A stretch of DNA of 64,000 bases. It comes from a virus (taxonomy: Duplodnaviria; Caudoviricetes). The stretch lies in IMG/VR virus record IMGVR_UViG_2940228231_000002, positions 1 to 64,000 of that record. The stretch is one strand, 5' to 3'. The notes under the pieces were generated by a model, which made no database searches, was not told where the DNA came from, and worked only from the letters and a program-made list of their open reading frames with translations. Positions 32,577 to 63,977 of this stretch are shown here, piece after piece (within the stretch, counting starts at the first letter, position 1; each line of letters opens with the position of its first letter). The position numbers were made by a program, and so were the translations under genes.

Positions 32577-33539
32577 CTAACATCGAATACAATCAAAAGT
32601 AGGAACAATTTCTCCATCTACTAATCGATAAAAAGTATTTTCCTTATAAATCTCTCCATCTATATAAACTACTTTCACATCTTTAATCAGACGATAAAAA
32701 TTTTTACCATCTTTACTAATACGTTCTCCTCGCTCTACCAAAACCAAATAACTTCCAATGCTCCCTTTCGCAAGACTGTTATATCCAAGAGCGCAAGCTA
32801 TTGAGTGTTCTCCTTCTACAGAAGCACTGCTAAAATCGCCATGAGAAGCAGCCGCTACTGCTTCCCCTACTGCTTGCGCTGAGGATTCAATACCCATTAC
32901 TTGCGCGGCCGATGACATACCTTGTACATATGCGGCTGAATAATTTCCAGTAGACTGAGCTAGACAGTTCATGCCTTCCACATACACACCTGAAAAAATT
33001 CCACTCGTTTGTCCTGCTGACGAGTTCCCAACTACTTCTGCCGCAGAAAATTCCCCACTTATCTGACCAGCAGATTTATCGCCTATTACTTGAATACCTT
33101 TGCAGTTAAATATAGATTGCCCTGCCGAGCCACGCCCTTGCACTCTTACACTACGTCGACCTAGTGTACCTTGACCACTATCACTGCGCTGATCTGAGTC
33201 AACTCCATAACTAGTTTGATATTTAATTCTAGCTCTATCAAAATGACGCATTATTGTTTGCTTTATAATTCCTTTCACACCAATTTCTTCAAGCAATTTA
33301 ATCTTCTTCGATACTTTCTTAGTATCTCCTTTAGTTTCATCAGATACCTCATCTATTTTTGTCAAAAAATAACGACTGAACGAAGGACTATAATAAATAA
33401 AAGTATTAATAGGGTCTTCACAACTGTGGAAACCTCTATTACAAAGTTCGGTATCCCCTTGCATTTCTTCTTGTTTTCCCAACTTGAATTGATAACCTCG
33501 ACATCTCATATTTATATCTGTTCCTTTATATGTATACAT
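32577..33539 (-). CDS. phage protein with YKG..CRG.Q/GFH.C N-terminal domain and Gly/Ser/Ala beta-helix-like repeats
   Basis: YKGTD.NMRCRGYQ, GFHSCEDP, ~9-residue small-residue repeats; paralog of 35077-35997. Confidence 0.75.
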   Translation of the reverse strand: MYTYKGTDINMRCRGYQFKLGKQEEMQGDTELCNRGFHSCEDPINTFIYYSPSFSRYFLTKIDEVSDETKGDTKKVSKKIKLLEEIGVKGIIKQTIMRHFDRARIKYQTSYGVDSDQRSDSGQGTLGRRSVRVQGRGSAGQSIFNCKGIQVIGDKSAGQISGEFSAAEVVGNSSAGQTSGIFSGVYVEGMNCLAQSTGNYSAAYVQGMSSAAQVMGIESSAQAVGEAVAAASHGDFSSASVEGEHSIACALGYNSLAKGSIGSYLVLVERGERISKDGKNFYRLIKDVKVVYIDGEIYKENTFYRLVDGEIVPTFDCIRC

Positions 33540-33559
33540 TTTATTTCTTCCTCTCTTTC

Positions 33560-33898
33560 TTAAATGCAACCACCACAAGAGCCGCTCCTCCAGTCCTCTT
33601 CTTGAAAAGCTAGAAATATATCTTCCATTTCGCTCTTGTGTGTAGTTATTTTAGACAACCACTCAAAATTCTCCTCTACCCACTCCTGACAATTTAATCC
33701 ATCTACATAATCAGAAAACTGTTCTTGCCAATCAATGAATTCCCATTGAGAATATTCCCCAAATGTATACATTGGACTATTTCTCAAATCCTCTGGAATC
33801 ATTTTTGAAATATCTATTCCATCTTCCTCTAGTGTCCATTCTCCAGCACATAAAGCAGGATAGCACCCAGTCCACTCAGCCACATATTTTTTCTTCAT
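33560..33898 (-). CDS. conserved phage hypothetical protein
   Basis: WTG.YP.LC.GEW...DWR.GSCGGCI. Confidence 0.65.
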   Translation of the reverse strand: MKKKYVAEWTGCYPALCAGEWTLEEDGIDISKMIPEDLRNSPMYTFGEYSQWEFIDWQEQFSDYVDGLNCQEWVEENFEWLSKITTHKSEMEDIFLAFQEEDWRSGSCGGCI

Positions 33899-34678: not shown

Positions 34679-34847
34679 TCTACTAACCTAAAATTTGTGA
34701 GTGTTACATTGAAATTTTATTCTGTGCTGGCGCATGAATAAAATTTTCCATGTAACACTTGAAAAATTCCTCCAGGTCTTCAACTTCGTGAAAATACAGG
34801 TTACACCTATACCGCACTTTATGTATTGTAGTGCTATTCGTTAGTAG
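34679..34847 (-). ncRNA. retron msr/msd-like element B (predicted)
   Basis: Terminal IR CTACTAAC/GTTAGTAG, unpaired G at 34839, two short stem-loops, ~60-nt long hairpin (34700-34759); ends shared with element A. Confidence 0.7.
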
Positions 34848-35076: not shown

Positions 35077-35997
35077 TTATTTGATAGCGGGAACTACTTC
35101 TCCGTCTACTAGTTGATAGAGAGTGTTTTCTTTGTACTTCTCACCATCAATTTGTATTACTTTCACAGTTTTAATTGGGCGGCACTCACCGTCATATTCT
35201 CCACGTTCTGTTAAGACTAAATAATTTCCCAAAGTCCCCTGTGCTGTGCAGTTATATCCAAAAGCACAAGCTATTGAATGCTCTCCCTTTACCGATGCAC
35301 TACTAAAATTTCCACAGGATATGGCTACCACTCTTTTTCCAATCGCCTGTGCTAAAGATTGTTGACCTATTGTTTGTGCTGTGCTACAGTCACCTGTTAC
35401 CTGTGCTACCGATTGTTGACTTATTGTTTGTGACGCCGTGTAATTCCCTATCGCCTGTGCCACCGAAGAGATGCCCACTGATTGAGCCCCTGAACATAAA
35501 CCTATTGCTTTTGCTATTGAAAAAGGAGCCGTTGTCTGTGCAGACGAGAAGGTGCCTGTTGTATGTGCCAGTGAATAGTTTCCAATTTCCTGCGCCGATG
35601 AATAATTGCCTGTGGCATATGCCACTGACGCACTATCGTTCTCCTGTGCCATAAAGCATCGCTCATTAGTATTATTTTTTTCATTAAAATCTGTTTGTTT
35701 GAGACGTAATGATAGTCCAGCCTCTATAATTCCATTTATTCCAATCTCCTTAAGAAATTTTATTTTTTTTGACACTCGTTTTGCCATACGTGTTTCATCA
35801 GAGATATCGTCTGTTTTCGTTTCAAAATATCGACTGTCTGATGGTGGATAATAAAAGAAAACTTCAATGGGGTCTTCGCAACTATGAAAACCTCGGCCAC
35901 AAAGCTTAACATCTCCTTCTATTTCTTCTTGCTTACCTAGCTCGTATTGATAGCCACGACATCTCATATTCATATCTGTCCCTTTATATGTAATCAT
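35077..35997 (-). CDS. paralog of 32577-33539 (repeat-containing phage protein)
   Basis: YKGTDMNMRCRGYQ, GFHSCEDP, AQTIG-type repeats, IDGEKYKENT.Y.LVDGE. Confidence 0.75.
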   Translation of the reverse strand: MITYKGTDMNMRCRGYQYELGKQEEIEGDVKLCGRGFHSCEDPIEVFFYYPPSDSRYFETKTDDISDETRMAKRVSKKIKFLKEIGINGIIEAGLSLRLKQTDFNEKNNTNERCFMAQENDSASVAYATGNYSSAQEIGNYSLAHTTGTFSSAQTTAPFSIAKAIGLCSGAQSVGISSVAQAIGNYTASQTISQQSVAQVTGDCSTAQTIGQQSLAQAIGKRVVAISCGNFSSASVKGEHSIACAFGYNCTAQGTLGNYLVLTERGEYDGECRPIKTVKVIQIDGEKYKENTLYQLVDGEVVPAIK

Positions 35998-36437
35998 TAT
36001 TCTTCTCCTTCTCTCATTTCTTCGTATTCGTTTTTCATCCATTCATCAAAGCACACATAGCACTCTCCACCATTAATACCAATCTCTTCGTCTACATCTT
36101 CTGGTTTAACACCTCTCTGCTCGCACCACTCTTTAACATATTGATTGTATAGTTCACGGCACGCTTTTTTCTTTGCTGCTTCCATCGCTTGTTCCATCAC
36201 ACTCCAGTAAGCTTCAAAATATGAGTCGCTGGTCATGAGCATTGCGACAAATATATTTGCGATTGCTTCCACATCTTTTTCGATGATTTCTACTTCTTGA
36301 TCTATATAATCATCGCTATTTTCTAAATAGATACACATGTCATCTACTATATTAGCACGCTCAACTTTTTCATAAATATATCTTCTCTCCTCTGCTGTTA
36401 GCTGCTCATATAGAGCCTCTTTTGATAATTCTTTCAT
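35997..36437 (-). CDS. hypothetical protein; its RBS is displaced by the IscB element
   Basis: ATG 36437 abuts the element end; C-terminal GECYVCFDEW..NEY. Confidence 0.6.
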   Translation of the reverse strand: MKELSKEALYEQLTAEERRYIYEKVERANIVDDMCIYLENSDDYIDQEVEIIEKDVEAIANIFVAMLMTSDSYFEAYWSVMEQAMEAAKKKACRELYNQYVKEWCEQRGVKPEDVDEEIGINGGECYVCFDEWMKNEYEEMREGEE

Positions 36438-36444
36438 CAAATCA

Positions 36445-37713
36445 TTAGGCTACGGAAACCCCCTGCTTTAGCTGTGGGGAGGAAGTAGCCATTCTCCTTT
36501 CTGTTAATATGGTTTTTCTCTTTTGTAACTGCTTCAGTTTTTTGTAACTGACGCCCTTTGATATGCTTGTACCATCTAATTGTCTAATGTCAAAACTGCC
36601 AGAAGAACGTCTGCCAAAGACAAAGCCCTCTTGCTTGCCGCATTTTACTTGATCAAACAACTGATAGCCAAATACATATTTCGGTGCTTGGTTTCGCTTT
36701 CTGATGCCACCTTTATTTATGGTTGCTTTATGCAGCTGCCGATTATGACGGCGTACACACTTTTGATGAAAGTAATAACCTAGCGGAACGGCCTTTGGAT
36801 TGCCACTGATACACCTTGCGTCCACTGCATGGGTTTTTTCAAGCCCTGCACCAATACGCACATGCTTTGTGATATACCCGAAAGTCATTTCTACGTTTTG
36901 ATACATTTCTTTAAGGTGTTCGTAAAGCGCCCAACGCATAATACCCATGAAGGCTGCATCTTTGTAGGATGCGCCTCTCTTTACTTTTAAGTCTATTTTT
37001 CCTCTGTGATAAGCATTATGACAGGTTTCGCATAAGGTAATGAGGTTTGTTGGCGCATCACCACCAGTCTTACGACTTTCTATGTGATGCACATTCAATA
37101 CAGCATCCTTAGACTTATCCTTACAATGTTGACATACATGATTGTCTCGGAACAGCACGTACTCACGCACATTCCAAAACCCTAGTTGCTCACCTTGTTG
37201 ATATGCTTCTCCTGCGATTAGACTATCTTTTAATTTCTGTGTATCAAAGGATGCCGTTTCTACGATCACCTTTGCTACTGGAAGCAGTTTATGTAGTTCC
37301 TTTATTAGTTTTTCGTGGGATGCAATCTTTTGCTTTATACTTGGCGCTAACCAACCCTTATCTCTTTTTCGATTAGAAAACCTTGCGGCTCTATATCTGG
37401 TCTTTCGATGCCTCCTACCTCTTCGTTGTTCTCTACGGCTTGCAAGCAATCCTACAATATCTGTTCTTAACTGTGTTTCTGATGCATAGAGTTCTTCTTT
37501 TTCAGTGGTTGCTGAAAGTCCAACGACTTTGCTACCAGCATCTACACCTAAGATGACTTCTTGTACGATTGTTGTTGTTTCATAGAGCAACTGGATGGTA
37601 AATGGGCATCGGCTTATTACTTTTGCCTTTTTGTTTTTTAACAGCCTTCTTACCTTGCCTTGCCGTTTGGTTGGCATAAGCGGTTCTCCGTCTTTACTTA
37701 TGATATATACCAT
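36445..37713 (-). CDS. iscB: IscB RNA-guided endonuclease
   Basis: PLMP domain, RuvC-I GVDAG, Arg-rich RRxRR bridge helix, RuvC-II VE, HNH with CxxC pairs, RuvC-III HAVDA. Confidence 0.93.
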   Translation of the reverse strand: MVYIISKDGEPLMPTKRQGKVRRLLKNKKAKVISRCPFTIQLLYETTTIVQEVILGVDAGSKVVGLSATTEKEELYASETQLRTDIVGLLASRREQRRGRRHRKTRYRAARFSNRKRDKGWLAPSIKQKIASHEKLIKELHKLLPVAKVIVETASFDTQKLKDSLIAGEAYQQGEQLGFWNVREYVLFRDNHVCQHCKDKSKDAVLNVHHIESRKTGGDAPTNLITLCETCHNAYHRGKIDLKVKRGASYKDAAFMGIMRWALYEHLKEMYQNVEMTFGYITKHVRIGAGLEKTHAVDARCISGNPKAVPLGYYFHQKCVRRHNRQLHKATINKGGIRKRNQAPKYVFGYQLFDQVKCGKQEGFVFGRRSSGSFDIRQLDGTSISKGVSYKKLKQLQKRKTILTERRMATSSPQLKQGVSVA

Positions 37714-37729: not shown

Positions 37730-37977
37730 TTGCATACTTCTTTGCTGTAAGCCTCTTGTATGCTAGAGTTTGTTACCCATCGCCAATGTTATGGAAAGGT
37801 TTTCACAAGCAGCACTATCTTTTCCCCATAAAGATTGTTTAACCACTTGCCGCAGAGTCTGAGGCTTGGATTGACACCTCAGAGTGCCTATATATTCTTT
37901 CCTAACGTAGTTTTCACTTTGGCTAGTCAGTAAGGGGACTTTTTCAAGCCCCCTGCTTTAGCTGTGGGGTTACTGAC
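37730..37977 (-). ncRNA. omegaRNA (HEARO) scaffold; guide predicted from the flank 37978-~37997
   Basis: GTCAGTAACCCC...GGGGCTTG start, GACTAGCC, CTACGTT, GTTAAACA, AACATTGGCGATGG segments typical of IscB leaders; 3' boundary approximate. Confidence 0.85.
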
Positions 37978-37982
37978 ACGTG

Positions 37983-38382
37983 TTCTCCTTTCAATTTTTG
38001 TTTTTTGCAATCTATATGATGTTATTAGCTCGATCGGAAGATGGGTGATGGATTTGGTTTTCCCGAAATTTAGGTGGGTTTTTGTATTTGTTTTAATTTC
38101 CGACTTGGGTTTAGCTAAAGTTTTTGATTCGTCAGAGGATATTTATTTTATTTATTTAATTTTCTTAGGTCAGCACCATTCAACTGCATACTCGAGATGA
38201 TTTCTTGATGCCATTTTTCCAGAGGTGTTGATGCGGATTTTAACGGCGTTTTTAGCTCGGGTAGCCTCATCTGTTTCTTCCCCCACGATGTGGTCGTGTT
38301 GAGAACCTCAACACGTTATTCTTTTAGAATAAAATGCATTGCAAAAAAAATACGCACTCTTAAAATGCGTCTACTTCAAAAT
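37983..38382. repeat. 400-bp direct repeat, copy 1
   Basis: Identical by eye to 39733-40132 (offset 1750). Confidence 0.95.
38001..38348 (-). ncRNA. retron msr/msd-like element C, copy 1 (downstream of RT)
   Basis: 11-bp IR TTTTTTGCAAT/ATTGCAAAAAA, G at 38337, stem-loops TTATTCT/AGAATAA and CGTGTTGAG-GTT-CTCAACACG. Confidence 0.7.
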
Positions 38383-38383
38383 A

Positions 38384-39727
38384 TTAATTTATGTTTACAT
38401 TCAAACACTCCTTCATGGTGTCTAATACATTAGCGTTAAACTTCTTGTTGTATTTTTCTATGATTTGCTCACAGCTCTTAGGCTCAACTGATTTAAGATA
38501 TGAGATATTTCCCATCATAACCTGAATATCTTTCACGTCCCAAAAGTTTCCATTTTGTACATCCATCATGAAATTCGTAATCATTGCTTGAATTCTCTTC
38601 TTCTCTTTGTGCCCAATAGTAATGCCATAGTCTTGGTTGTACATAAGGCCCAAAATCCAGTTACTTCCCGCAATAGAGCCATATCTGGTTTTCTTGGTAT
38701 TCAATTTAAACGGTGCCTGCTCCTCTTCTAGCACTGAGTTGATGTACTCAATCACTGAAGAATACTTGAAGCCACGGTGCCCGCCGATGAACAAATCATC
38801 TGCATATCTTGTATAGAGCAGTTTGAAGTTCTGCTCTCCATCATCTTTATCAAATTCCGTCACAGATTTCGCATCAGTCAGTAATTTATTATAGATTTTG
38901 AAGTCTATTGGAATCATCAATATATTAGTCAGAAGCGGTGAGATTGGCGTACCTTGTGGCAATCTCCCATCCAAGAAACACAATCTAAGGCAATTATATA
39001 AAGCCCTCTCGCCTCCGTACATTGAGCAAATTTCACTAAACGGAAATATTTGCTTCATTTGTCTCATTGTGAAATCAATATCTATGCTACCAAAGAAATT
39101 GCTAAAGTCTAATTTCAAAATCCATCTACTTTTATTCTTTTGTAGTTTTCGCACAAGGTCTTGTGTGCATCTGCCAGGAATGTAAGCATATGCTGCTGTA
39201 TGATATGTATTTCCTTTCATAAATTCTTCAAGCATCAGCTTCAATTCAGTCAGTGCTGCTTTTAGTTCTGGATGAGGAGCGTCAATTTGACGCAGTCCAC
39301 TTCCAGACCTCTTAGGTAGGAAAAACGTATAGTAGTTTGGATTATATTTCTTGCCAGTCGATTCTAATATTTCCTTAGTTTTTTCGTTGACTTCTTCTTC
39401 ATCTGATAATCCACAACTAAATTTCGCATCTCGTTGTGCTTTTACTTGATCAGCATAACAGTAGTCATCATCAAATGAAATATCTAGGTTTTTATGCATA
39501 TCATAAAATTTTTCTAGTTGTCTAACCATATCGCTAACCACGTACTCTTTTTTCATTCCAGTCAGCACTTTGCTTGTGTCTTTAGCCACTATTGTTTTGG
39601 TTGAATTAATTTTTACGTTTGTTTTTCTATATTTTCCGATTGAATCCTCATCAATCAATCCGAATAGCACGTCTTCAAAAGACATTGTTTCGGTTCTTTT
39701 TGTTTGTTTTGTAATAATATAAGTCAT
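38384..39727 (-). CDS. retron-like reverse transcriptase (447 aa from MTYII)
   Basis: Y..F..PKRSG.LRQI.AP, AYAY..GR, LKLDFSNFFGSI, LPQGTPISP, YTRYADD, LN.KKT, ILGL; NAxxH and VTG signatures degenerate; ~130-aa N-terminal extension. Confidence 0.9.
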   Translation of the reverse strand: MTYIITKQTKRTETMSFEDVLFGLIDEDSIGKYRKTNVKINSTKTIVAKDTSKVLTGMKKEYVVSDMVRQLEKFYDMHKNLDISFDDDYCYADQVKAQRDAKFSCGLSDEEEVNEKTKEILESTGKKYNPNYYTFFLPKRSGSGLRQIDAPHPELKAALTELKLMLEEFMKGNTYHTAAYAYIPGRCTQDLVRKLQKNKSRWILKLDFSNFFGSIDIDFTMRQMKQIFPFSEICSMYGGERALYNCLRLCFLDGRLPQGTPISPLLTNILMIPIDFKIYNKLLTDAKSVTEFDKDDGEQNFKLLYTRYADDLFIGGHRGFKYSSVIEYINSVLEEEQAPFKLNTKKTRYGSIAGSNWILGLMYNQDYGITIGHKEKKRIQAMITNFMMDVQNGNFWDVKDIQVMMGNISYLKSVEPKSCEQIIEKYNKKFNANVLDTMKECLNVNIN

Positions 39728-39732
39728 TTCTT

Positions 39733-40132
39733 TTCTCCTTTCAATTTTTGTTTTTTGCAATCTATATGATGTTATTAGCTCGATCGGAAGATGGGTGATG
39801 GATTTGGTTTTCCCGAAATTTAGGTGGGTTTTTGTATTTGTTTTAATTTCCGACTTGGGTTTAGCTAAAGTTTTTGATTCGTCAGAGGATATTTATTTTA
39901 TTTATTTAATTTTCTTAGGTCAGCACCATTCAACTGCATACTCGAGATGATTTCTTGATGCCATTTTTCCAGAGGTGTTGATGCGGATTTTAACGGCGTT
40001 TTTAGCTCGGGTAGCCTCATCTGTTTCTTCCCCCACGATGTGGTCGTGTTGAGAACCTCAACACGTTATTCTTTTAGAATAAAATGCATTGCAAAAAAAA
40101 TACGCACTCTTAAAATGCGTCTACTTCAAAAT
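39733..40132. repeat. 400-bp direct repeat, copy 2
   Basis: Runs from the last 23 nt of the ThiF gene to the RT RBS. Confidence 0.95.
39751..40098 (-). ncRNA. retron msr/msd-like element C, copy 2 (upstream of RT)
   Basis: Canonical retron position just 5' of RT; IR 39751-39761/40088-40098, candidate branching G at 40087. Confidence 0.75.
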
Positions 40133-40793
40133 TTCTTGTGTTTACTAAAATCATTTTCTTGAATTCATCGTTTCTGCCTAACACTACATTGATGAAATTA
40201 TCAATTGTGAAATTGCATACTGCCCTCACTGTAGATACAAGTGATAGTGTCGTATTGCATGCTGAAACTGGTGTGTCGGCATCTGCTTCCTCGTCTGTAA
40301 AATTCATAGATTTAAGCAGATTATCTTTTTCTTTATAATCATGCCATCTTGCACCATATGCCTGAGCATCTGTCAATCGAATTCTGTTGTCAAATACAGC
40401 CTTTATATTGACATTGTTAAAATTCGTCTGGCATATTGTTTTTCTGACTGAGATTTTATCTACGGCCATGAAGACATATCCATTGAGCATTTGATTTTCA
40501 TATCGTTCAACGAACTGAATGTCAACATCTGGGTTTATCTCTCGCATAATACCTGCCAGTGCCTCTGTTTTCTTTCGCCCAATATCTTTTTGTCTAAACA
40601 TCTGATTTGAGATATTGTGTGGCTCTACAGTATCAAAGTCATACAGTGTGAACTTCGTCAGTCCAATTCTCACTAAGAGCTCAGCAGTCGAAGACCCGAC
40701 TGCACCACAGCCTATAATATGTATCCTATCCCTGCATTTTTCTGGCTGAAAATATTCGTAAAATTTACTTGTGTCCATTTTTTCCTCCTTCAT
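40110..40793 (-). CDS. ThiF/E1-like ubiquitin-activating enzyme
   Basis: IIGCGAVGS, D.D.VE.HN.SNQ, K, AVD...R, candidate catalytic Cys in PVSAC. Confidence 0.9.
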   Translation of the reverse strand: MKEEKMDTSKFYEYFQPEKCRDRIHIIGCGAVGSSTAELLVRIGLTKFTLYDFDTVEPHNISNQMFRQKDIGRKKTEALAGIMREINPDVDIQFVERYENQMLNGYVFMAVDKISVRKTICQTNFNNVNIKAVFDNRIRLTDAQAYGARWHDYKEKDNLLKSMNFTDEEADADTPVSACNTTLSLVSTVRAVCNFTIDNFINVVLGRNDEFKKMILVNTRNFEVDAF

Positions 40794-41367
40794 TTTTTAC
40801 TTTTGGGTCTACCATTTCCAGATATTCTTCATAAATATCACGTAGCCCACCATCTGATGTGCCAATGTAGATATTTTCACTGTTATATAGTAGCCCGTCT
40901 TCTCTGTCTGCAATCCTAAAAAAGAAATCGAACCTCTTATTTAGAATTATAAAGATGTAGAAACTATCCTCTTGTAGCATTTCTATAGTGTCGTATTGAT
41001 AATCCAAATCAACTCCAGACGGTGATGTTTGCATGTTAACATGGGAATGTCCATATAAACATAGGTTATCAAGCCTCTCATCTTCTTCGAGCGCCATTTT
41101 TTCCAACCACTGCCCATATAGGTTATCAATACATTGCACGGTTACTGGAGACGTTTTGTGCGGATAGAGGAACACATCATCAATCTGATATTCACCCTTC
41201 CCGATCTTTCGCCCACTTCCGTGCCATGCAATTTCGTTTTGATGGAACATTGTCAGGAAAAGCATTTTCGACATTGCTTTTGGGTCAAACAGCACTTTCG
41301 CCTTATCATCTGTTTTTTCAAGCGACGCCACAACAATGCTTTTATCTTTCACATCGTTCTTATTCAT
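40765..41367 (-). CDS. JAB/JAMM metallopeptidase (deubiquitinase-like)
   Basis: E(IAWHG) ... HSHVNM..SPSGVD matches E-HxH-x7-S-x2-D. Confidence 0.88.
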   Translation of the reverse strand: MNKNDVKDKSIVVASLEKTDDKAKVLFDPKAMSKMLFLTMFHQNEIAWHGSGRKIGKGEYQIDDVFLYPHKTSPVTVQCIDNLYGQWLEKMALEEDERLDNLCLYGHSHVNMQTSPSGVDLDYQYDTIEMLQEDSFYIFIILNKRFDFFFRIADREDGLLYNSENIYIGTSDGGLRDIYEEYLEMVDPKVKNEGGKNGHK

Positions 41368-42697
41368 TGCTCTCCTCCTTATAGAAATTCTCGATAATAT
41401 AGCGGCCACTGTGCAGCTCACCCGACTCATCCATTATGCATTCACAAGCCATAATTTCATCGAGGAAACGCATGGCAACTGTGGGGTCGAGCCAATTGAT
41501 ATTCTGCGTTAGCGATATTGTCGCCTGTATTGCACTAATTAAATCGCCGTTTTCCATAGCTTGATTCCAAAGCATTTCAAATCCTCCATTGCATTTATAC
41601 ATAGCTGCATGTGGAGCTGGCAAGCCTTCGTAATCCTCTCTCAACCTATGTTCATCTGATACATTTCTCATATAGCTTTGGACATCAAAAGTGATTGCAA
41701 ATGTAGCACTTCCCATAATTTTATACTTGTAATTAACAAAGATTTCATCTAATAGCCATTTCGCCGCTTTTTTCTTATCATTATGCATACCGCCATATAT
41801 ACATACCCTGTCCAAGTCCTCAGTTGCCTTTTGGAATCCATCTTGGTCAAAATAAACTATAGGAGCGACAACATCATAAAACACCTCTGTTCCCCGTGTT
41901 TGTATGTTTTTTATTAGCTGATTTCCGACAAGAAAATCAATGAGCTCTTTATCTCTTTCATTAGTTCCTGCCTCGTTTTCAATTCCAGATAGTATTAACA
42001 TATCGTAATTATTCGCTTCTATGTTCCTTCTATACTCTTGCATAAATGACTCATTCTCTCTATTGCGCTCGTCTATTCTATTTGCAGCAGTTTTCCTTCT
42101 CTGTTTATTCATAATCTGAAGACCATGTATAATAGCATCTTTTTGAATTTGCACCTCAAGTTTTTCGACATCGAATGTAGAGGCAGCCAAGGCCATCTCG
42201 AATGCCTTAGTGCTATCTGACTTTGCAACTTCTTTTAACCAATTAACTTTTTTCCCAATGGTTTTAACATCAATAAGCCCATTTGCAAGTCTTGGCAATA
42301 ATCCCGCTATTACGTGCACAGTTTTTTTGATTACAAAATCTCCCATAGCTCTATTTTTGCCTTTAATAAGGATAATCTTTGTATTGTCTACTTCGTATAT
42401 ATTCACAACCATTGGAAAACCGCAAGACTTAGTAAGATATTCAGATGTGATTACGTCCTCTTTTCCCATGAGTTCATCTAAACTATCGTTGATAAATGAA
42501 AATATATAATCGTATTTAGTTTCTTGTTCAGGATTTAAAGGATTATAATCTCTACGCATGCACACTGACTTTTCAAGCTTTTCTCCACTGGATAAAACAT
42601 TAAGAACAAGCCCCATAGTGAGCAGATCGTCGCTTTTCACATGTATGTTTTGCATTTCTAATTCTTCTATGATTTTCCTTTTTACCGATCCATTCAT
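41360..42697 (-). CDS. putative E2-like conjugating protein with coiled-coil N-terminal region
   Basis: C-terminal LPAPHAAMYKCNGGF resembles the prokaryotic E2 PH-x5-C-x-G signature; sits between Ubl and JAB/E1. Confidence 0.55.
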   Translation of the reverse strand: MNGSVKRKIIEELEMQNIHVKSDDLLTMGLVLNVLSSGEKLEKSVCMRRDYNPLNPEQETKYDYIFSFINDSLDELMGKEDVITSEYLTKSCGFPMVVNIYEVDNTKIILIKGKNRAMGDFVIKKTVHVIAGLLPRLANGLIDVKTIGKKVNWLKEVAKSDSTKAFEMALAASTFDVEKLEVQIQKDAIIHGLQIMNKQRRKTAANRIDERNRENESFMQEYRRNIEANNYDMLILSGIENEAGTNERDKELIDFLVGNQLIKNIQTRGTEVFYDVVAPIVYFDQDGFQKATEDLDRVCIYGGMHNDKKKAAKWLLDEIFVNYKYKIMGSATFAITFDVQSYMRNVSDEHRLREDYEGLPAPHAAMYKCNGGFEMLWNQAMENGDLISAIQATISLTQNINWLDPTVAMRFLDEIMACECIMDESGELHSGRYIIENFYKEESNE

Positions 42698-42726
42698 TGT
42701 TTTTCTCCTTTCTATGTTTTTTATTA

Positions 42727-42910
42727 TCTACTAACCTAAAATTTGTTTTCCGTGACTGAAGCAGACTGGCGCTATGGGCAAGGAAGGCTTCAGGGATTGA
42801 AAAGCGAATTATCACTGCTGCTCGTTATTGCAGCAGTAATCCGACTCGATGTGATAACACAAGTAACACTTGTACTGCATTTAATTACTTTAATGCCATT
42901 CGTTAGTAGA
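42727..42910 (-). ncRNA. retron msr/msd-like element A (predicted)
   Basis: 9-bp IR TCTACTAAC/GTTAGTAGA, G at 42901, stems GCATT/AATGC and TACAAGT-GTT-ACTTGTG, internal hairpins. Confidence 0.7.
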
Positions 42911-42923
42911 CTCTATGTATTAT

Positions 42924-43169
42924 TTACATAGCACCATTTGCGTTTTTGATCGCAGACAGGATATTGGTTTCTTCTTTATATCCTTCTAATTGATTTAGCG
43001 GAGTCGTCATTTCTGCCTCAGTCAAATATCCACCATTTAAGGTGAACTGATTTCCTACTAAGATTCCACAAAATTCTTCCATTTCTGTTACATCTACGAA
43101 TGTGCTATTCTCATCAATAATTGCTGATTTTCTTGCTCCTGTTGAGTTCATTACGATTAATTTAGTCAT
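42924..43169 (-). CDS. ubiquitin-like (beta-grasp) protein
   Basis: 81 aa, beta-beta-alpha pattern, TLNG..L....L..L, C-terminal KNANG-AM; upstream of E2/JAB/E1. Confidence 0.6.
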   Translation of the reverse strand: MTKLIVMNSTGARKSAIIDENSTFVDVTEMEEFCGILVGNQFTLNGGYLTEAEMTTPLNQLEGYKEETNILSAIKNANGAM

Positions 43170-43244
43170 TTTTATTCTCCTTTTCTCTTCAATAAAATAA
43201 GGCAGCGACTTTTATCACTGCCATCCAATTTTCACTATATCTTT

Positions 43245-43631
43245 TTACAACAAAACACTAACTGATTGCTCAACACTGTCAATTTCTTCTTTGATAACTG
43301 ACAATGCCTGCTCGATGCCCTCTTCAACTGCATTTGCGTTGATCATGACATAAGTGTAGCGTTCTGCAAAATATCGTTTCTTTTCAGCCTCTGTTTCGCC
43401 ACACACTACAACCTTAGTGGCCGCCTTACCATCGCTGGTTGTTTTGCCAAATGCAATTCCATGGCTAAACACACCATTTTCTCCATCACATTTGTACACA
43501 AAATCAACATCGCCGTTTTCGTCATACAATTTTAACACTTCTGGCTTGTACTTTTGAACAGTCTTCAAATCTTCCGTTGTGTAGTCACTTACAATAATTG
43601 CCTCGTTCATCATAATTTTTACTTCTAACAT
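43245..43631 (-). CDS. hypothetical protein upstream of Ubl
   Basis: 128 aa; RBS AAGGAG. Confidence 0.6.
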   Translation of the reverse strand: MLEVKIMMNEAIIVSDYTTEDLKTVQKYKPEVLKLYDENGDVDFVYKCDGENGVFSHGIAFGKTTSDGKAATKVVVCGETEAEKKRYFAERYTYVMINANAVEEGIEQALSVIKEEIDSVEQSVSVLL

Positions 43632-43855: not shown

Positions 43856-44570
43856 TTAATAATTGCTTAGTAATATTTTTTCAAACTCATCTCCATCTGG
43901 ATCGAATTCAGGTTTTAAGTGAGTCAAGTCCATAAATTCCTGAAATGATATCTCATACGGAAGACTTATAAAACGATCCGCACGATTCCCATATATCATT
44001 CCCCCATCTACACACAAGCGGTAAAATGTATTTTCTCGATAATAATTCCAATATGTTTCTTTATCATCATCATCGCACCAATGAAAACCAATCGAGTAGA
44101 CATACTCTATGAATTCTTTAGCTTCATTTTCCGTTAGACATTCTATCATTGGTCTTCCATCAAAAATATCAAATATGTCATCAACTGTTAGGTTCATATA
44201 ACTCCTCCTCTTCATAATTTCCCAGTAATATTTTTTCAAATTCATCAGGGTCTACTTCAATTTTGAAGTAAAGAGCAAAATTGATCAAATCCATGAATTC
44301 CTGAAATGACATTCGTTTCTGTAAATATTGTGCATTTGCTTTTAGATAATCAACGCCTGCATATTGTATCTTTCCATTGCCTCGCAATGAATAGTGAGTA
44401 TTTTCCTTCTGATAAATCCACAGTCGTATTTCACCTGCAATATCACTTTCCACTCCAAACCCAATAGAATGAATAAATTTTATAAACGCTCTTGCTTCAT
44501 CTCTAGTTTTACAATTAATCCACGTATTTTCACCTATAATGTCTATTACGTCTGTAATTGTTGGCTTCAT
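43856..44570 (-). repeat. two tandem paralogous genes (43856-44197, 44181-44570)
   Basis: I.C.T..EA..FI....SIGF, ENT.Y.L, SFQEFMDL, DEFEKILL.NY. Confidence 0.8.
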
Positions 44571-44696: not shown

Positions 44697-45299
44697 TCAT
44701 ATTTTTTCTTCCAGTGGCCATGTAAACTCGTCCAATTTTCCATAATCTCCAAACCACCAAAAATCCTCTTCTTCGTCATCTTGGTTAATCCAGATTTTCC
44801 CGTTGTTCTCTTCTTTAGCAAGTGACATCACGTCAAAATCTGCAATGATTGAGCCGAAGAAATTAACAAGCACATCTCTTGCGATTTGGTATGGCGTTCC
44901 GTCACAGCCACCGTCTCTGAGTTCAAATAGGTGCAGCCCATCTGGTATGGTGTTTCTGTTAATTCTCATATCTGAGAAAAGAAACAAGTGGTCTTTGCCG
45001 TCAATTGTGCAGCCTACTAGGTCGAAACTCTCTTTTGTTGCATTTATTTGATTATTGCAATATTTACTATCCATGCAATTCGTGCAGTTATTGCAATCGA
45101 TACAATCACTACAATCCACGCAGTATGAGCAGTTTATGCAATTTCTACAATCAATACACTCTGTACAATTCTCACAGTCTATACAGTTTTCACAGTCAGT
45201 CAATGAATTGCTATTCGTTTCGGCATCTATCTCACTGTAATATCTTGAATTCCACTTGTTATTGTTCTCATCTACCCAAAATCCATTTATTAGTTTCAT
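44697..45299 (-). CDS. Cys-repeat protein fused to an LPD28-like domain
   Basis: MKLINGFWVD...(CxxC)n then LF...RI.R.TIPDGL..FELR...VLVNFFGSII. Confidence 0.6.
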   Translation of the reverse strand: MKLINGFWVDENNNKWNSRYYSEIDAETNSNSLTDCENCIDCENCTECIDCRNCINCSYCVDCSDCIDCNNCTNCMDSKYCNNQINATKESFDLVGCTIDGKDHLFLFSDMRINRNTIPDGLHLFELRDGGCDGTPYQIARDVLVNFFGSIIADFDVMSLAKEENNGKIWINQDDEEEDFWWFGDYGKLDEFTWPLEEKI

Positions 45300-45301
45300 T
45301 T

Positions 45302-45862
45302 TTATTCTCCTTTTTCACCGATTTCAAATAATGCTTTTACTTTCTCAATTTCTGCTTTATATTGTTTGCCGTACTCATTATCTCCGTGTGTTTTTTCAAC
45401 TGCCTCTTCAAATTCTTTCAGGTTTCCATAAAAACAACCACATATCACTTGCAATGATTTTCCGTTTTTTATTTTTCCATTATAGAAATATGTTATCTCA
45501 TTACGACTACCAATATGTTTAGTAGAATATAATTGTGGCTGTTCTGTATAATTCTCGCAACATCTGCAATGTAAACACTTTGAACAACCATCACAGCAAC
45601 TGCAACTCCTACAATTTTTACACTTTCGACAACCTGTACAATTTGCGCAGCTTATACAATCTCTACAGCCTCTGCAATGTAAGCATTTTGTGCAATTTTT
45701 ACAATCAAAACAATTTTTACAATCAAAACAATTTTCACAGTTTGTGCAATCTCTACAATCAACTAGTGTTTTGCTACAAGCCTCAGCTTCATCTTCACTG
45801 CAAAGCCCATCACCCCATCTGTTATTTCTATCATCTACCCAAAATCCATTCACATGTTTCAT
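45302..45862 (-). CDS. Cys-repeat protein
   Basis: NGFWVD head, (CxxC)n, IGSR...CGCF.G.L.EFE..V..THGDN tail. Confidence 0.75.
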   Translation of the reverse strand: MKHVNGFWVDDRNNRWGDGLCSEDEAEACSKTLVDCRDCTNCENCFDCKNCFDCKNCTKCLHCRGCRDCISCANCTGCRKCKNCRSCSCCDGCSKCLHCRCCENYTEQPQLYSTKHIGSRNEITYFYNGKIKNGKSLQVICGCFYGNLKEFEEAVEKTHGDNEYGKQYKAEIEKVKALFEIGEKGE

Positions 45863-53340: not shown

Positions 53341-54207
53341 ATGTTAGCAAATAAATACAATTATGAGGACTATTACAAGGCGAATAAGACGCACACAGAG
53401 GAAGGGGCAACTTACGAGGATACACAGATACTGCCCTTCCCCACTATGAGGGAGCAGGAAGAGGAGCAGGGGCAAGAAGTAGCCACCCCCCTCCCACTAC
53501 AAAAAGGAGCAGAGGGAGAACACAACCCCTCCCCTTCACGTAGTGACATATATAGAAAGCCTACCACCACCCAGTACAAGTCAGACGGCATATTAAAGCC
53601 AACCGCTGCCGATCCCATCAGGGATGCCAGTGACGTGCAAAAGATGTTAACATACTTTCTTGACAAAGGTAAGGTACGGGACTATACATTTTTGACGCTT
53701 GGTATATCGTTTGCCCTAAGAGCGGGCGATCTACTGTCGCTTAAGATAGAGGACGTATTTAACTTAGATGGCACAGTGAAGAGCCACTTTGTCATTTACG
53801 AGGATAAGACAAACAAGAGGCAGAAGGTGCACATCAATGAGAAGTGCAAGGAAGCCCTGTCCCTTTATCTAGACTCACTGGATGACGTATACAGCACTGA
53901 CCCACTGTTTATGAGTAGGCAGCGCGATCAGTGGGGCAACAAAAAGGCGATTACCATTCAGCAGGCAATCACGGTGCTAAAGAAGGCGGCCAAGGAGTGT
54001 GGCGTTAAGGGGCACATTAGCAGTCATAGTATGAGGAAGACATTCGCCTACCACACGATAAAGAACAATGAGGGCAATCAAGAGGTGTTACTGATGTTAC
54101 AGCACATGTACAAGCACACGGACATAAAGACCACATTCAGGTACTGCGGGATTGAAGAGGAGCAGATTGACGCACTGAGAGAAGATATAGGCGGGATTTT
54201 ACTATGA
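53341..54207 (+). CDS. tyrosine recombinase/integrase
   Basis: RD...LRAGDLL, KT, HSMRKTF, H...TFRY catalytic set. Confidence 0.92.
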   Translation: MLANKYNYEDYYKANKTHTEEGATYEDTQILPFPTMREQEEEQGQEVATPLPLQKGAEGEHNPSPSRSDIYRKPTTTQYKSDGILKPTAADPIRDASDVQKMLTYFLDKGKVRDYTFLTLGISFALRAGDLLSLKIEDVFNLDGTVKSHFVIYEDKTNKRQKVHINEKCKEALSLYLDSLDDVYSTDPLFMSRQRDQWGNKKAITIQQAITVLKKAAKECGVKGHISSHSMRKTFAYHTIKNNEGNQEVLLMLQHMYKHTDIKTTFRYCGIEEEQIDALREDIGGILL

Positions 54208-56818: not shown

Positions 56819-59800
56819 ATGTTTGCACCTAAACTATACTCTGTTTACAAAATATCTTTGCGGGATATTGTGGCGGCTGACTATAGGCTGAGTGGTACTA
56901 ACGACGAGCTGAGAAAATATCGAGTGCGTCAGCAAGATGGTGGCATATTACGGCAAATACGCCTCATCACTGGAGACGACGGAAAGTTCAATCCATATAT
57001 TGTGTTCGTCATGTTAGATAAAAAAGACAAAGAGATTATTGCCCAAATAATCAGGAACGGCTTTTATATCAACGAGACCCACTTCACATTTAGTGAGAGG
57101 TCGGCATCTATGACAAGGAGCGGAATGTTAAGTTTTGTAGATACGACAATTATTGACGAACTTAATGAGCGTGTGAATATGGACATTGCAGATACTAAAA
57201 CGGTACTCAGCAAGAAATATGCATACCGAGGATTGTTCCTAAGCTCCAGTCATATGCTTGAGGGATTCTTCCCCAAGATGATTGTAGTGCCAGACTACTT
57301 CCCCACTATAAAAGACCAGCACATCAAATATGCTTATGATGATACGCTGCACTTTGTAGATAAAGAAGGTCGGGAACGCACGTGGACACAAAAGAATATC
57401 GCCGAGGGAATTAGGGATATTGAAATAAATGCTTTTGACGGGAGCGGGATTTGTCACCCTGCTATCTCAAGACAGATAGAGCAATTATTGGGAAGCCCTA
57501 CCCCTGTCAGCAGTTATATTATCCGCGCACCTTACATTAAGGGCCTTGTACATGAAATTGATTATGAGTCGTTTTTCTTAGAGCGAGGCATCACACAAAT
57601 CAAAGATATATGGGGCATATATCACGATTTCTCGGAGCCAATGATTATTATGACTGAGGGCATGTATAAGGGGCTTGGATATTTCAAGACCTACGGCGAT
57701 GAGCGAGATTGGGAGCTTTATTGGGAGAAATTTCATAAGTATGAGCATTGCATAGGCATTACAAAGTGGAACTTCACCGCCGATGAAGAGCCTGTGTATA
57801 CCAGAGCAAATTATCAGATACTGCAAGATTTGAAATTGTCTTATGAGGACTTTAGGAGCTTGTCGGACTACAGTATTGAATGGGCGGATAAAATTATCCA
57901 CGGAGATCCATTTTATACATACTCCTTCCTCGGAATGTACGCCGATAGTCATAAGGCAAAGAATGACTACATCGCTGCTATTCTTAAAGACCCAGAGATG
58001 TTAAAGGAGCAGAGCGTGAAAAAATACTTGCTGAACTCACTGACAAAATATCGCAATGATATGAAGTGTGGCAAGTTATGGCTTAAGTCAACATTTAAGT
58101 TCTTGGCTCCAGATTTAATTATGCTTATGGAATGGATTGGCGGGCTTGACCCTGTAGGCTCTTTGGAGAGTGACGAATTTTATTCTCATAGTAAAGACGG
58201 GGCTTATGAGGGAGAGTTCTTAATTGAACGGAACCCGCACATCTGCCATAGTGAACATACTATATTGACTGGTGTTCAAAATGAAGTAATCAACACATAT
58301 TGTTCTCATCTTGATAACGTGTGTATGATCAACTGTAAAAGTATTGTTCCTCAAAAAATAAACGGGGCCGATTACCCCTTAAAAAGTCCACCCTTGCAGG
58401 AATGCAAGGTGTGCAACGGTGTGAACTGCTTATCGGCAGGTGTGGTGGAAGCACATTGTATTGAGCAGGAAATGGCTCATTAATTCCGCTGCTAACTGGG
58501 GAGGTATGAATGTCGTGTTCATAATAATCCAGTGCTACACTTTAAGCAAATAAGCTTAAAGAAAGTCTAGAGACTATGGGTGATGAGTGTAGCCCAGTAC
58601 CTGCCCTATTGATACGGGTTTGGGAAGCGTACCGCCACCAGAACGGTGGAAGATATAGTCCCTATATATCAATATAGGTTTGATGGAGACCTGATTCTCC
58701 TGATTGATAATGAAATGATGATGCGAGGTGTTGACAGAGATGCTCCAGTGGTTATGGACATCGAAGACAAAATTACAGCCCTCGCTGAAGAGGATACAAT
58801 AGATAACCGAGTTAACCTAGTGTTACGCACAATAAACTCCTTAATTGGAGAAACGAGTAAATATTTGCTCCTTTGTATGGCGACATATAATAGCAAACCT
58901 CTTTAATTGCTGGAAACCCCTTAGAGCGTTTCTAACTACAACATAATCAGAAATGATAAGTGTGAATGTGTAAAAATAGAAACGATTGGGCAATCAGCAG
59001 CCAAGCTCCTTAAACGGAAAAGGTTCAACGACTATCGCATGTGCGAGTACATTCAAGCGAATGGAAACGGGAGGCATCTCCATGAGATGAAGATATAGTC
59101 TGTACATCTACGGAAACGTAGAGAGATGATATTAGCGACATCATCGTAACAAAGTAGAATTGTGCAACAGGTTATCACAATAAGCAACCACGAGACGAGG
59201 AAACAAGAAAGAAATACGAGTCTTATGTGGATTTATTAAGCATAATTAACGGAAAGGTGATAAATGCGTAGGCTGTCACCCTATGTGGCGACACATAGAA
59301 AACAAGTTGGTGAACTCGTAAATGCGAGGTGTGCATCTTACAGTTGGAATCGCAGGAAATGGCGATTTGAAGATGTGCTAACAGGGAAAAAGATTATCTC
59401 AATCCTGTGCCAAGCCTGAGCAGAGATGCTCTTGAAGGTCAAGAGACTAAGATACACGGGCTTTTTAAGTCTATGAAATCTGTACATGGTGAGTGAAATT
59501 CTCTCCGTGGAAGCGCCAACCTCTCACACTTGTGAGATGAAGATATAGTCCAAATGAGACTACGCCAAAACTGGAGTGTTGTACAACATTCCAAAACACA
59601 TTGCAAAATATAGTAAGCCCCTGCCCTACTTCATGAAATATGCGTCTGAGTATTATAAGGGATTGAATACTTTTTCAAACGCAAACAGCAACATGAATAG
59701 ACTTTGTAAAGATATTGAGAAATGGAGCAAGAAACAGAGATACACTGGGCTAGATAGAAACTTCGACTACAAAATAATGATAGACGATTCTATTGATATA

Positions 59801-62908: not shown

Positions 62909-62982
62909 AGCGGTGTTGAGAAGTGGTATCTCATGGGACTCATTATCCCAAATCGGGTGTTCGACTCACCCCACCGCAACCA
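62909..62982 (+). tRNA. tRNA with CAT anticodon (Met, or Ile2)
   Basis: Cloverleaf, TGGGA-CTCATTA-TCCCA anticodon arm, TTCGA loop, encoded CCA, A1:A72 mismatch. Confidence 0.85.
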
Positions 62983-63162
62983 TTACTCGTCTACCATGTT
63001 GTAGAATGAGAAATCGGGCTTCGTAATGCGATTTCCGAATTTTGTAAAGTCAACATTAAATAAGGCATTAAAAGATAATATCTTTATTATAGAGAGCACC
63101 TGTGCTGTCCGTATTTATAGGCTGTTGAGAGTTCAGCTTGCTTTAGCCTAGAAGTTTAATAC

Positions 63163-63239
63163 GCTGGTATAGTTCAGTTAGGTAGAATACTTGTTTTGTA
63201 CTCAAGATGTCTGAGGTTCAAATCCTCATGCCAGCTCCA
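63163..63239 (+). tRNA. tRNA-Thr(TGT)
   Basis: GCTGGTA/TGCCAGC acceptor, anticodon loop TT-TGT-AC, GGTTCAAATCC, TCCA end. Confidence 0.85.
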
Positions 63240-63376: not shown

Positions 63377-63977
63377 AAGTACCTATAAAAATATATACTA
63401 AAGTAACTCAGTGCAAACATCACTAGTTAGGTGGTGCTGAGGCATACTGGTTGAGTCAGTTATGTAAAAGACGGATACGTCTTTTCTGTAGCTGCGCGTC
63501 TTTAAGCGATTTCTGACGTGTAGGCAAAACCGAAACTCAAGGTATGGCACTGCGTTTACTGCAATCAAACGCACGAGATGAATGGGCAACGCAATAGAAA
63601 GAGTGGTTAAAAGCCACTCCGAATCCAAGTTAGGTTTTAGTTGGTGACTGTAGCAAACCTTGGAAATACCAACAAGTTGTTTCCCAGTGAAAGAGAGAAA
63701 TCTCTGTATAACATTCGTCGAAGTACGAGTAGGGTGGGGATTTTATAATATTGCTTTATCAAACGAATATAAGCACAAAATAAAATTTTCTGAATTAATC
63801 CTGAAAGTTGAGGGTAAGCAACCCCTCCAAAGTTTAGCTCTTTGATGGGCGTGGTAAAGAAGTCACTAGGGTAGCTCCCTTAGGCTCAGACTTTATCTCC
63901 TTTGTGGCAGAATATGGTTGAAAGTAAGCAACAGCAGGCTGAAAAGACACTTTCTGTATATATTTTTATAGGTACTT
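63377..63977 (+). ncRNA. large structured RNA candidate (ROOL/GOLLD-like)
   Basis: 601 nt closed by a perfect 22-bp IR (63377-63398/63956-63977), many internal hairpins, inside a tRNA cluster. Confidence 0.6.

Follow-up and report, generated by a model that had tools for sequence, protein, structure and literature searches.

A conserved gene block of large gut phages joins a retron-type reverse transcriptase to predicted ubiquitin-like conjugation genes

Gene content and genomic setting

The stretch of DNA analysed here (the window) comprised 64,000 nucleotides of viral sequence (Duplodnaviria; Caudoviricetes), positions 1 to 64,000 of the IMG/VR record IMGVR_UViG_2940228231_000002. At 38384-43631 it carried a block in which the gene for a retron-type reverse transcriptase (RT) stood together with genes for a candidate ubiquitin-like protein (Ubl), an E1-like adenylyltransferase (ThiF), an E2-like protein and a JAB/JAMM metalloprotease. 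An initial annotation, made from the sequence alone, had listed six co-directional open reading frames (ORFs) here, and all six were recovered at the positions given there, co-directional on the minus strand, together with two candidate non-coding RNAs (ncRNAs), elements A and C. In the direction of transcription, the features of the block and the repeat that follows it were as follows.

43245-43631, minus strand: p128, a conserved 128-aa ORF that adjoins the Ubl-like gene
42924-43169, minus strand: p81, an 81-aa ORF, ThiS/MoaD-like (beta-grasp) Ubl candidate
42728-42909, minus strand: element A, a candidate retron-style ncRNA
41360-42697, minus strand: p445, a 445-aa ORF with a three-part product and a predicted UBC-like C-terminal domain
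40765-41430, minus strand: predicted JAB/JAMM metalloprotease (JAB), a 221-aa ORF with its likely start at 41367
40110-40793, minus strand: ThiF/E1-like adenylyltransferase (ThiF), 227 aa, a single ThiF/MoeB-type domain
39752-40097, minus strand: element C, a retron-style ncRNA immediately upstream of RT
38384-39727, minus strand: RT, retron-type (ORF as first listed, 38384-39760)
37983-38382, minus strand: second copy of 39733-40132, an exact 400-bp repeat directly after the RT stop codon

All six genes were uninterrupted. The overlaps previously reported between the E2-like and JAB genes and between the JAB and E1 genes were also seen, with sizes that depended on the choice of start codon. 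Translation of JAB probably begins at Met22 (41367), in which case the overlap with the 445-aa gene is 8 nt, and the JAB and ThiF ORFs overlapped by 14 to 29 nt according to the start chosen. The ncRNA-like elements that had been placed within the cluster were found as well, each of the two non-coding gaps (42698-42923 and 39728-40109) containing one RNA-like element bounded by inverted repeats. Searches of Pfam, PHROG, NCBIfam and PADLOC assigned no family to p128, p81, p445 or JAB. PADLOC gave no retron-effector match for these four proteins, its matches being confined to the RT and to the portion of the E1 that binds nucleotide. A megablast search of GenBank phages with the block region returned zero matches.

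The window was part of a contig of ~429 kb in a low-GC bacterial genome of 2.17 Mb (27 contigs, 99 % complete by marker genes). Nearly all genes between position 1 and ~52,000 of the window were carried on the minus strand, and those on the same strand as the block included a phage-type ribonucleotide reductase, a DNA polymerase, a DnaB helicase and a methyltransferase; an integrase was encoded at 53341-54207. The prophage is large, and the block falls within its early/replication part.

Linkage of the reverse transcriptase to the ubiquitin-like genes

The gene order p128, p81, p445, JAB, ThiF, RT was repeated in 129 other loci, with protein identities of 25-70 %. Retrieval with a ThiF alignment gave 80 loci in IMG/VR, mostly on contigs of 60-150 kb, and 43 loci in GTDB, in metagenome-assembled genomes mostly labelled Clostridia, whereas pattern scans of viral contigs with p445 alone or with p445 alignments were unsuccessful. 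The presence of each gene was scored with purpose-built hidden Markov models, and a locus entered the count for a gene only where its contig extended far enough in that direction. Among the 129 ThiF-sampled loci (IMG/VR and GTDB), p445 was present in 115 of 115, JAB in 123 of 124, p81 in 107 of 110, p128 in 108 of 109 and RT in 110 of 112. When loci were sampled through the RT alone (the best 80 of 489 IMG/VR relatives), ThiF was found in 74 of 75, JAB in 71 of 73 and p445 in 57 of 58. Clustered at 70-80 % identity, the loci gave ~60-70 groups.

Contigs found solely by way of p445 relatives agreed with this picture. Four of them (L004, L005, L006 and one more, judged from its gene list) had the same order including RT, and in L007 the order was the same as far as ThiF, the contig stopping ~400 nt later, before an RT could appear. 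The GenBank gut phage MT835544.1, in which relatives of p445 and RT lie 2 kb apart, carried the block complete and with its order unchanged, at identities of 26-47 %. The cassette was not found in 300 genomes of the host's own family.

The linkage was thus obligate in the loci sampled, and the RT and Ubl genes did not assort independently, co-occurrence being ~98 % in both directions. The initial annotation had proposed that the RT and Ubl genes are one phage-encoded module, a proposal that is supported by these counts and by the fold results given below. The block is very probably one conserved phage module rather than a pair of neighbours, its two halves being functionally linked.

It is extremely improbable, and close to refuted, that an ordinary retron simply landed beside an unrelated E1/JAB operon and that the two act independently. 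Such an origin would suit the terminator-like hairpin between ThiF and element C, the exact 400-bp repeat around RT and the adjoining IscB element, which hint at local mobility, and the many loci that have extra genes between ThiF and RT, with gaps of up to ~2.8 kb (one outlier of 6.3 kb). Chance adjacency is rejected, however, because of the co-occurrence counts, which extend over ~60 or more clusters and identities down to 25 %; furthermore, the Ubl operon of the window's lineage itself contains another retron-style RNA, element A, in the gap from p81 to p445.

The reverse transcriptase and the 400-bp repeat

The RT matched Pfam RVT_1 (1.5e-20) and the PADLOC model RT_II-A (5.7e-47), and in PADLOC 55 retron or related models gave matches. 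In NCBIfam, the retron St85 RT model (NF038233) gave 4.2e-50 compared with 7.1e-20 for group II intron RT, although the score of 170.7 bits on NF038233 was below the cut-off of 235, the curated threshold of this named retron RT family. The catalytic motifs YADD and LPQG were intact and invariant in the family alignment, and there was an N-terminal extension of ~130 aa. Retron RTs generally carry a VTG motif, at the place of which the RT had NW.LG. Judged by these matches, the RT clearly groups with retron RTs and not with group II intron, diversity-generating retroelement or other RTs. Its start is probably the ATG at 39727, behind GGAG, rather than the TTG at 39760.

Two other kinds of RT-containing element were considered and excluded. 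A diversity-generating retroelement was excluded because the RT belongs to the retron type and the two copies of the 400-bp repeat, at 100 % identity, show no A-specific changes, and a group II intron because Rfam detected no intron RNA at the block and retron models fitted the RT far better.

The RT gene was situated between exact direct repeats of 400 bp, 37983-38382 and 39733-40132, each copy of which took in the final 23 nt of ThiF together with element C and the ribosome-binding site of RT. The repeat may be an assembly artefact. Recombination between the two copies would remove the RT.

Directly after the second leader copy, a HEARO/omega RNA was detected at 37768-37977 on the minus strand (Rfam, 141 bits), beside an IscB gene at 36445-37713, also on the minus strand (NCBIfam guided_IscB, 2.3e-108). 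The bases just 5' of the HEARO scaffold, the place expected for the IscB guide, repeated the ribosome-binding region of the RT itself, and the IscB/HEARO element stopped a few bases ahead of the ATG of the next gene (35997-36440). In the closest relatives, ~2 kb downstream of RT, genes for a NadR-like protein (CTP_transf_like plus AAA_28) and a PnuC-like nicotinamide mononucleotide transporter were present (L004, 6283-8087; L005, 13586-15329), which resemble NAD-salvage genes.

Retron-style RNAs

Element C began with the repeat a1, TTTTTGCAAT, and ended with the inverted repeat a2, ATTGCAAAAA, just ahead of the RT ribosome-binding site. In the window and in many other lineages, a1/a2 pairs of 7-10 nt, spaced 250-350 nt, were found just upstream of RT, the a1/a2 sequence differing from lineage to lineage. 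They shared one layout, in which a1 was followed by a G in almost every copy and then by a brief conserved segment, two stem-loops (1 and 2), the TTG.GAGG box, a body that varied, TTAG and finally a2. In an alignment of 27 sequences, compensatory changes were seen in seven of the seven predicted pairs of stem 2; stem 1, which MAFFT misaligned, was identified by eye only. A covariance model (R1) matched both window copies of element C at 47.6 bits (E 1.4e-8), the match in the second copy being 38269-38347. Element C is, on this sequence evidence, a covarying retron-style RNA with a1/a2 repeats, for which an msr-msd role is predicted.

Two further candidates shared this layout. Element A had the repeats CTACTAAC (a1) and GTTAGTAG (a2), two 5' stem-loops and a variable middle, and an A-like element of the same layout with other a1/a2 sequences occupied the matching gap in L005 and L006. 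Element B, at 34680-34847 on the minus strand and ~3.5 kb downstream of RT, had the same a1/a2 pair and 5' part as element A and a different middle part, the ends of the two elements being 80-87 % identical. Across the window, model R1 gave no convincing score beyond the two copies of element C, and elements A and B were not detected by it; they are candidates related to element C by shared layout only. Rfam contained no family for any of the three RNAs. In four of the loci inspected, ThiF and RT were only 10-17 nt apart, and the RNA of these phages must therefore have another location.

In the more distant relative L007, what appeared by eye to be a tRNA gene ending in CCA (~4085-4170) replaced the A-type RNA between the Ubl and E2-like genes. 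Element B was flanked by two phrog_4433 paralogues on the minus strand, 32577-33578 and 35077-36042, between which a stretch of 223 nt was 75 % identical; the gene at 35077-36042 matched the Pfam family DUF7666.

E1-like and JAB enzymes

The ThiF protein matched Pfam PF00899 (6.9e-23) over residues 22-213 and possessed an invariant cysteine, Cys179, in the motif TPxSAC. Matches to the PADLOC E1-E2 and NCBIfam ThiF models covered the nucleotide-binding part, the PADLOC models aligning over only ~75 residues, and the best NCBIfam matches were ThiS adenylyltransferases. The assignment as a minimal E1-like adenylyltransferase is unambiguous in sequence terms, the activity being predicted. JAB showed the motif E...HSHx7SxxD, of which E45, H107, H109, S117 and D120 were invariant in 44 diverse relatives. 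When the profile of the JAB family was compared with the PDB, all 12 matches at E≤1 were to Rpn11/PSMD14, the best (E 7.8e-4) extending across the MPN core. The JAB call is secure, the active site being complete, and protease activity is predicted.

The E2-like protein p445

When all 1.8 billion representatives were scanned with HMMER, 645 relatives of p445 were obtained, mostly of 440-500 aa. His363 and Cys369 were invariant, within the motif PNPHxxxYxCxG. An AlphaFold2 (AF2) model built with an alignment of 110 sequences had a mean predicted local distance difference test (pLDDT) score of 92.5 and was divided into three parts, namely a MogA/MoaB-like alpha/beta domain (residues 15-152), a single helix of 65 residues (177-241) and a UBC-like (E2/RWD) domain (245-445). 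The last of these consisted of a helix, two strands, a two-helix insert, two strands, the loop bearing His363 and Cys369, and three helices, and its structural neighbours were solely RWD domains and true E2 enzymes. The E2 call of the initial annotation, which had relied on short motifs and context, thus gained a modelled fold.

Other comparisons were less informative. The single-sequence AF2 prediction (pLDDT 34) was uninformative, Foldseek comparison of the whole model with the PDB gave no match with E≤0.001, and profiles of the whole protein or of its C-terminal domain gave coiled-coil or chance matches only when run against PDB sequences. Pfam searches with 70 family members showed no common family, a word-based homology search with p445 returned the self match only, and hhalign comparison of the C-terminal domain with 12 Prok-E2_D proteins gave 0.9 %, which is not significant. 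Prok-E2_D itself was found at one locus in 301 genomes, and Prok-E2_B at none in 401 genomes, nor in the controls. In the ESM Atlas, one cluster with Prok-E2_D in 11 % of its members provided a weak lead for the C-terminal domain (score 0.87). Overall, p445 is probably E2-like, as suggested by the modelled fold and the placing of the conserved residues, and stands outside every described E2 family. The stretch after Cys369 (C-x7-W-x2-A-[LM]) may resemble C-x7-W-S-P-A-L, the active-site segment of E2 enzymes such as UBE2D2.

The Ubl candidate p81 and its companion p128

The p81 family (79 distinct sequences from related loci) had a common pattern of strand, strand, helix, LxG, DLDKTF and a final strand. 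Most relatives ended in K-A-D-N-A followed by 0-4 variable residues, and the end in the lineage of the window was ANGA-M or ANGA-C (...ANGA-M in the window itself). With the rarer ends G-A, S-A and G-G taken into account, the conserved end was [N/G/S]-[A/G] overall; Gly-Gly occurred at this place in two of the 79 sequences, both with a few residues beyond it. Comparison by hhalign of the family with 21 ThiS/MoaD sequences, which came from same-class genomes, gave a probability of 80.5 % (P 1.3e-5) over 43 columns, while the controls (six unrelated pairings and one reversed) all gave ≤2.6 %. The top eight PDB matches of the p81 profile included SAMP2, PF1061 and two TtuB sequences, in register from residue 1 and weak (E 0.2-0.75); the ESM Atlas returned nothing for p81. 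The beta-grasp fold suspected earlier for this small protein therefore has a profile-to-profile match behind it, and p81 can with moderate confidence be regarded as a candidate Ubl resembling ThiS/MoaD, unusual in having a non-glycine end.

The p128 gene was always beside the Ubl-like gene and, in non-fused loci, was a separate gene upstream of it. No relative of p128 was found in Pfam, PHROG or the PDB, profile search of the PDB included. In 16 loci (L011, L023, L024, L028-L030, L036, L039, L040, L045, L051, L056, L057, L100, L108 and L121), the gene order was swapped and the Ubl, now first, formed a single ORF with p128. At the joint, the Ubl end ...DNA continued directly into the second residue of p128 (...DNA|AK...). 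A fusion at the conserved end would need a processing protease, which gives JAB a job; processing of a Ubl precursor by the protease of its own operon has been demonstrated for Bil and Bub (PMC10557695, PMC11601596).

The same proteins could be read in terms of sulfur transfer, in which case p81 would be a ThiS/TtuB-like carrier, thiocarboxylated by ThiF and matured or recycled by the JAMM protease, as modelled on the CysO/Mec+ and QbsE/QbsD systems. Sulfur would then pass to RT-DNA (the DNA product of the RT), phage DNA, tRNA or a small molecule, and no protein would be tagged. The nearest relatives of p81 (ThiS/MoaD by hhalign; SAMP2, PF1061 and TtuB by profile) accord with this, as do the minimal ThiF/MoeB type of the E1, with its best NCBIfam matches to ThiS adenylyltransferases and its invariant cysteine kept, and Ubl, E1 and JAB neighbourhoods are known in sulfur metabolism (PMC1779556). 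The conserved Asn-Ala or Gly-Ala end of p81 is, however, not the Gly-Gly of known carriers, and an E2-like domain with an invariant cysteine is always present. None of the six proteins was recognized by Pfam as a rhodanese, a cysteine desulfurase or a sulfur-insertion enzyme, although a host enzyme could serve, and the Ubl-p128 fusions better fit a conjugation precursor. Sulfur transfer consequently appears quite unlikely.

Comparison with known systems

Retrons consist of an RT, an msr-msd ncRNA and an accessory effector, and 13 types have been described (PMC7736814). The block resembled them in the best matches of its RT (St85/type II-A, E 1e-47 to 1e-50), in the a1/a2-bounded ncRNA with 5' stem-loops directly upstream of RT, and in the fixed synteny of its accessory genes. 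It differed in that none of the 13 types is described with an E1, a JAB or a Ubl, ThiF, JAB and ubiquitin going unmentioned in that account (PMC7736814), in having several ncRNAs per locus and a large phage as carrier, and in that its multicopy single-stranded DNA (msDNA) is only predicted.

Among ubiquitin-like systems, BilABCD (PMC10557695) has the same four roles (Ubl, E1, E2-like protein and JAB-type protease), and the protease is expected to pre-process the C-terminus of the Ubl, a step that is predicted here. The E1 of Bil, however, comprises inactive and active adenylation domains and a mobile cysteine domain, compared with one domain of 227 aa in the block, and the processed Bil Ubl ends in Gly, whereas p81 relatives mostly end in Asn-Ala. 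The E2-like protein of the block, at 445 aa, has two extra parts and no sequence match to any E2 family. Bil is moreover a host defence lacking an RT or ncRNA, whereas the block is phage-borne. In Bub (PMC11601596) the Ubl is likewise made as a fusion precursor, which is cut by the system's own peptidase and is comparable to the p81-p128 fusions in 16 loci, and E1 and E2 are diverged. Unlike the block, in which Cys369 of p445 and Cys179 of ThiF are invariant, Bub uses oxyester intermediates without catalytic cysteines; the protease families also differ, and Bub has no RT.

The PRTRC cassette (ParB-related, ThiF-related) similarly combines a small ThiF-type E1 with an E2-like protein on a mobile element, Prok-E2_D being 'PRTRC system protein B'. 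ThiF nevertheless scored only 28.6 bits on TIGR03736 (cut-off 144.75), no ParB was encoded in the block, the Prok-E2_D match was 0.9 %, and PRTRC has no RT. The ThiS/MoaD-ThiF/MoeB carriers with a JAMM protease (CysO/Mec+, QbsE/QbsD), together with the archaeal SAMP/UbaA pair, are the closest Ubl group and share the minimal E1, and in these sulfur carriers the JAMM protease removes C-terminal residues, which is likened to the role predicted for JAB. The block departs from them in having no Gly-Gly end and no sulfurtransferase, an E2-like protein that is always present and a linked RT. In contrast to type II CBASS (Cap2/Cap3), the E1 and E2-like proteins were encoded by separate genes rather than as an E1-E2 fusion, and no cGAS/DncV-like nucleotidyltransferase was present, the Pfam and PADLOC matches in the block being limited to ThiF and RT.

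Proposed mechanism

The explanation that we regard as probable is a conserved phage module with a retron-like and a ubiquitin-like half, from whose composition we infer the following biochemical steps and biological role. The active-looking RT would make RT-DNA from template RNAs of its own that are delimited by a1/a2 (element C ahead of RT, with A and B nearby). The ubiquitin-like half would be made up of p81, the minimal E1 (ThiF), the JAMM protease, the E2-like p445 and the constant companion p128. The protease would trim the p81 tail, or cut fused p81 off p128, and so expose the ...N/G-A end, which ThiF would then adenylate. Activated p81 would pass to Cys369 of p445, possibly via Cys179 of ThiF, and would finally be joined to a target. 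The RT-DNA/RT complex would most likely serve as a sensor, scaffold or regulator of the p81 reaction; in known retrons, msDNA plays such a part for the effectors.

That the chemistry is protein conjugation is favoured by a little over even chances, and several points weigh against it or against the coupling of the two halves. The E1 is a bare domain of 227 aa without the separate cysteine domain of the Bil E1, so an E2 may be unnecessary, as in archaeal sampylation, which is not known to need one. Neighbourhoods of Ubl, E1 and JAB genes occur in sulfur metabolism as well (PMC1779556), and p81 usually ends in Asn-Ala, compared with the Gly or Gly-Gly of Ubls and sulfur carriers (PMC10557695, PMC1779556). 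The search patterns were derived from RT-linked ThiF sequences, so that a cassette lineage without RT could be missed. Finally, a terminator-like hairpin at 40102-40120 on the minus strand marks the ThiF end, just before element C, and the two halves may therefore be separate transcripts.

A further terminator-like hairpin was found at 43201-43222 on the minus strand, between p128 and the Ubl gene, and the block is possibly more than one transcript. The number of terminator-like sites was not above that in shuffled sequence.

With regard to the biological role, the module probably acts for the phage, in takeover or counter-defence during infection, rather than in defence of the lysogen. The deep divergence, the gene order kept in many large phages and the position in the early/replication region suggest that it serves the phage and is not a sporadic host-protecting moron. 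The alternative is that a prophage-borne retron of a new type protects the lysogen, the Ubl machinery being a toxic or phage-blocking effector that RT-msDNA restrains until superinfection. The prophage harbouring the block does form part of a bacterial contig, the window encodes an integrase, and many classic retrons are prophage-borne. Conserved RT, ncRNA and accessory genes are the layout of a retron (PMC7736814), and Bil, Bub and CBASS Cap2/Cap3 are all anti-phage systems (PMC10557695, PMC11601596, PMC10097602). On the other hand, every contig on which the cassette was found was phage-like (most were 60-150 kb long), and the cassette combines deep divergence with fixed order, which resembles long vertical inheritance in a phage lineage and not a sporadic moron. 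It was also not found in the 300 genomes of the host family, it stands among early and replication genes, and nothing in it beyond RT and the nucleotide-binding segment of the E1 was recognized by PADLOC. A role in lysogen defence is therefore possible but doubtful.

It seems unlikely that the block is one undescribed machine in which the RT-DNA/RT complex directs Ubl tagging (its target or its timing), or in which the Ubl is covalently joined to RT-DNA or RT. The host would in that case be disarmed or rewired, and the ncRNAs, with their shared 5' part and differing middles, would be interchangeable programmes for one set of enzymes.

Full-text searches of the literature that could be searched yielded no description of an RT joined to E1, JAB and Ubl genes; retron-like RT clades exist in viruses, and E1, JAB or Ubl partners are not mentioned in the account of them (PMC13681634). 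Retrons and bacterial ubiquitin-like conjugation are both very active topics in phage-host biology and have so far been known as host defences, whereas here the two are firmly linked and carried by phages. The group of gut phages concerned is large and diverse, considerably more than a hundred uncultured ones having the block. The E2-like protein, the Ubl and p128 represent protein families that are unnamed in databases. If the two halves work together, the block would be a new type of retron with a new class of partner, the first phage-encoded set of E1, E2, Ubl and deubiquitinase, and a natural test case for the control of an enzyme cascade by RT-DNA. Since the prophage is in a near-complete bacterial genome, the host of this version is known, which should make experiments more practical than with metagenomic contigs alone.

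Neighbouring features in the window

Just upstream of the block, two overlapping paralogous ORFs of 129 aa were present at 43856-44570 on the minus strand; a family search with the ORF at 43856-44245 gave none. These were followed at 44697-45862, again on the minus strand, by adjacent paralogous ORFs of 200 and 186 aa (phrog_15341) with runs of a 9-nt periodic repeat, which would encode regularly spaced cysteines on the coding strand. On the plus-strand side of the window, a group I intron (58849-59123; Rfam, 104.6 bits), a ROOL RNA (63383-63968; 299 bits) and genes for tRNA-Met and tRNA-Thr (62909-63239) were detected.

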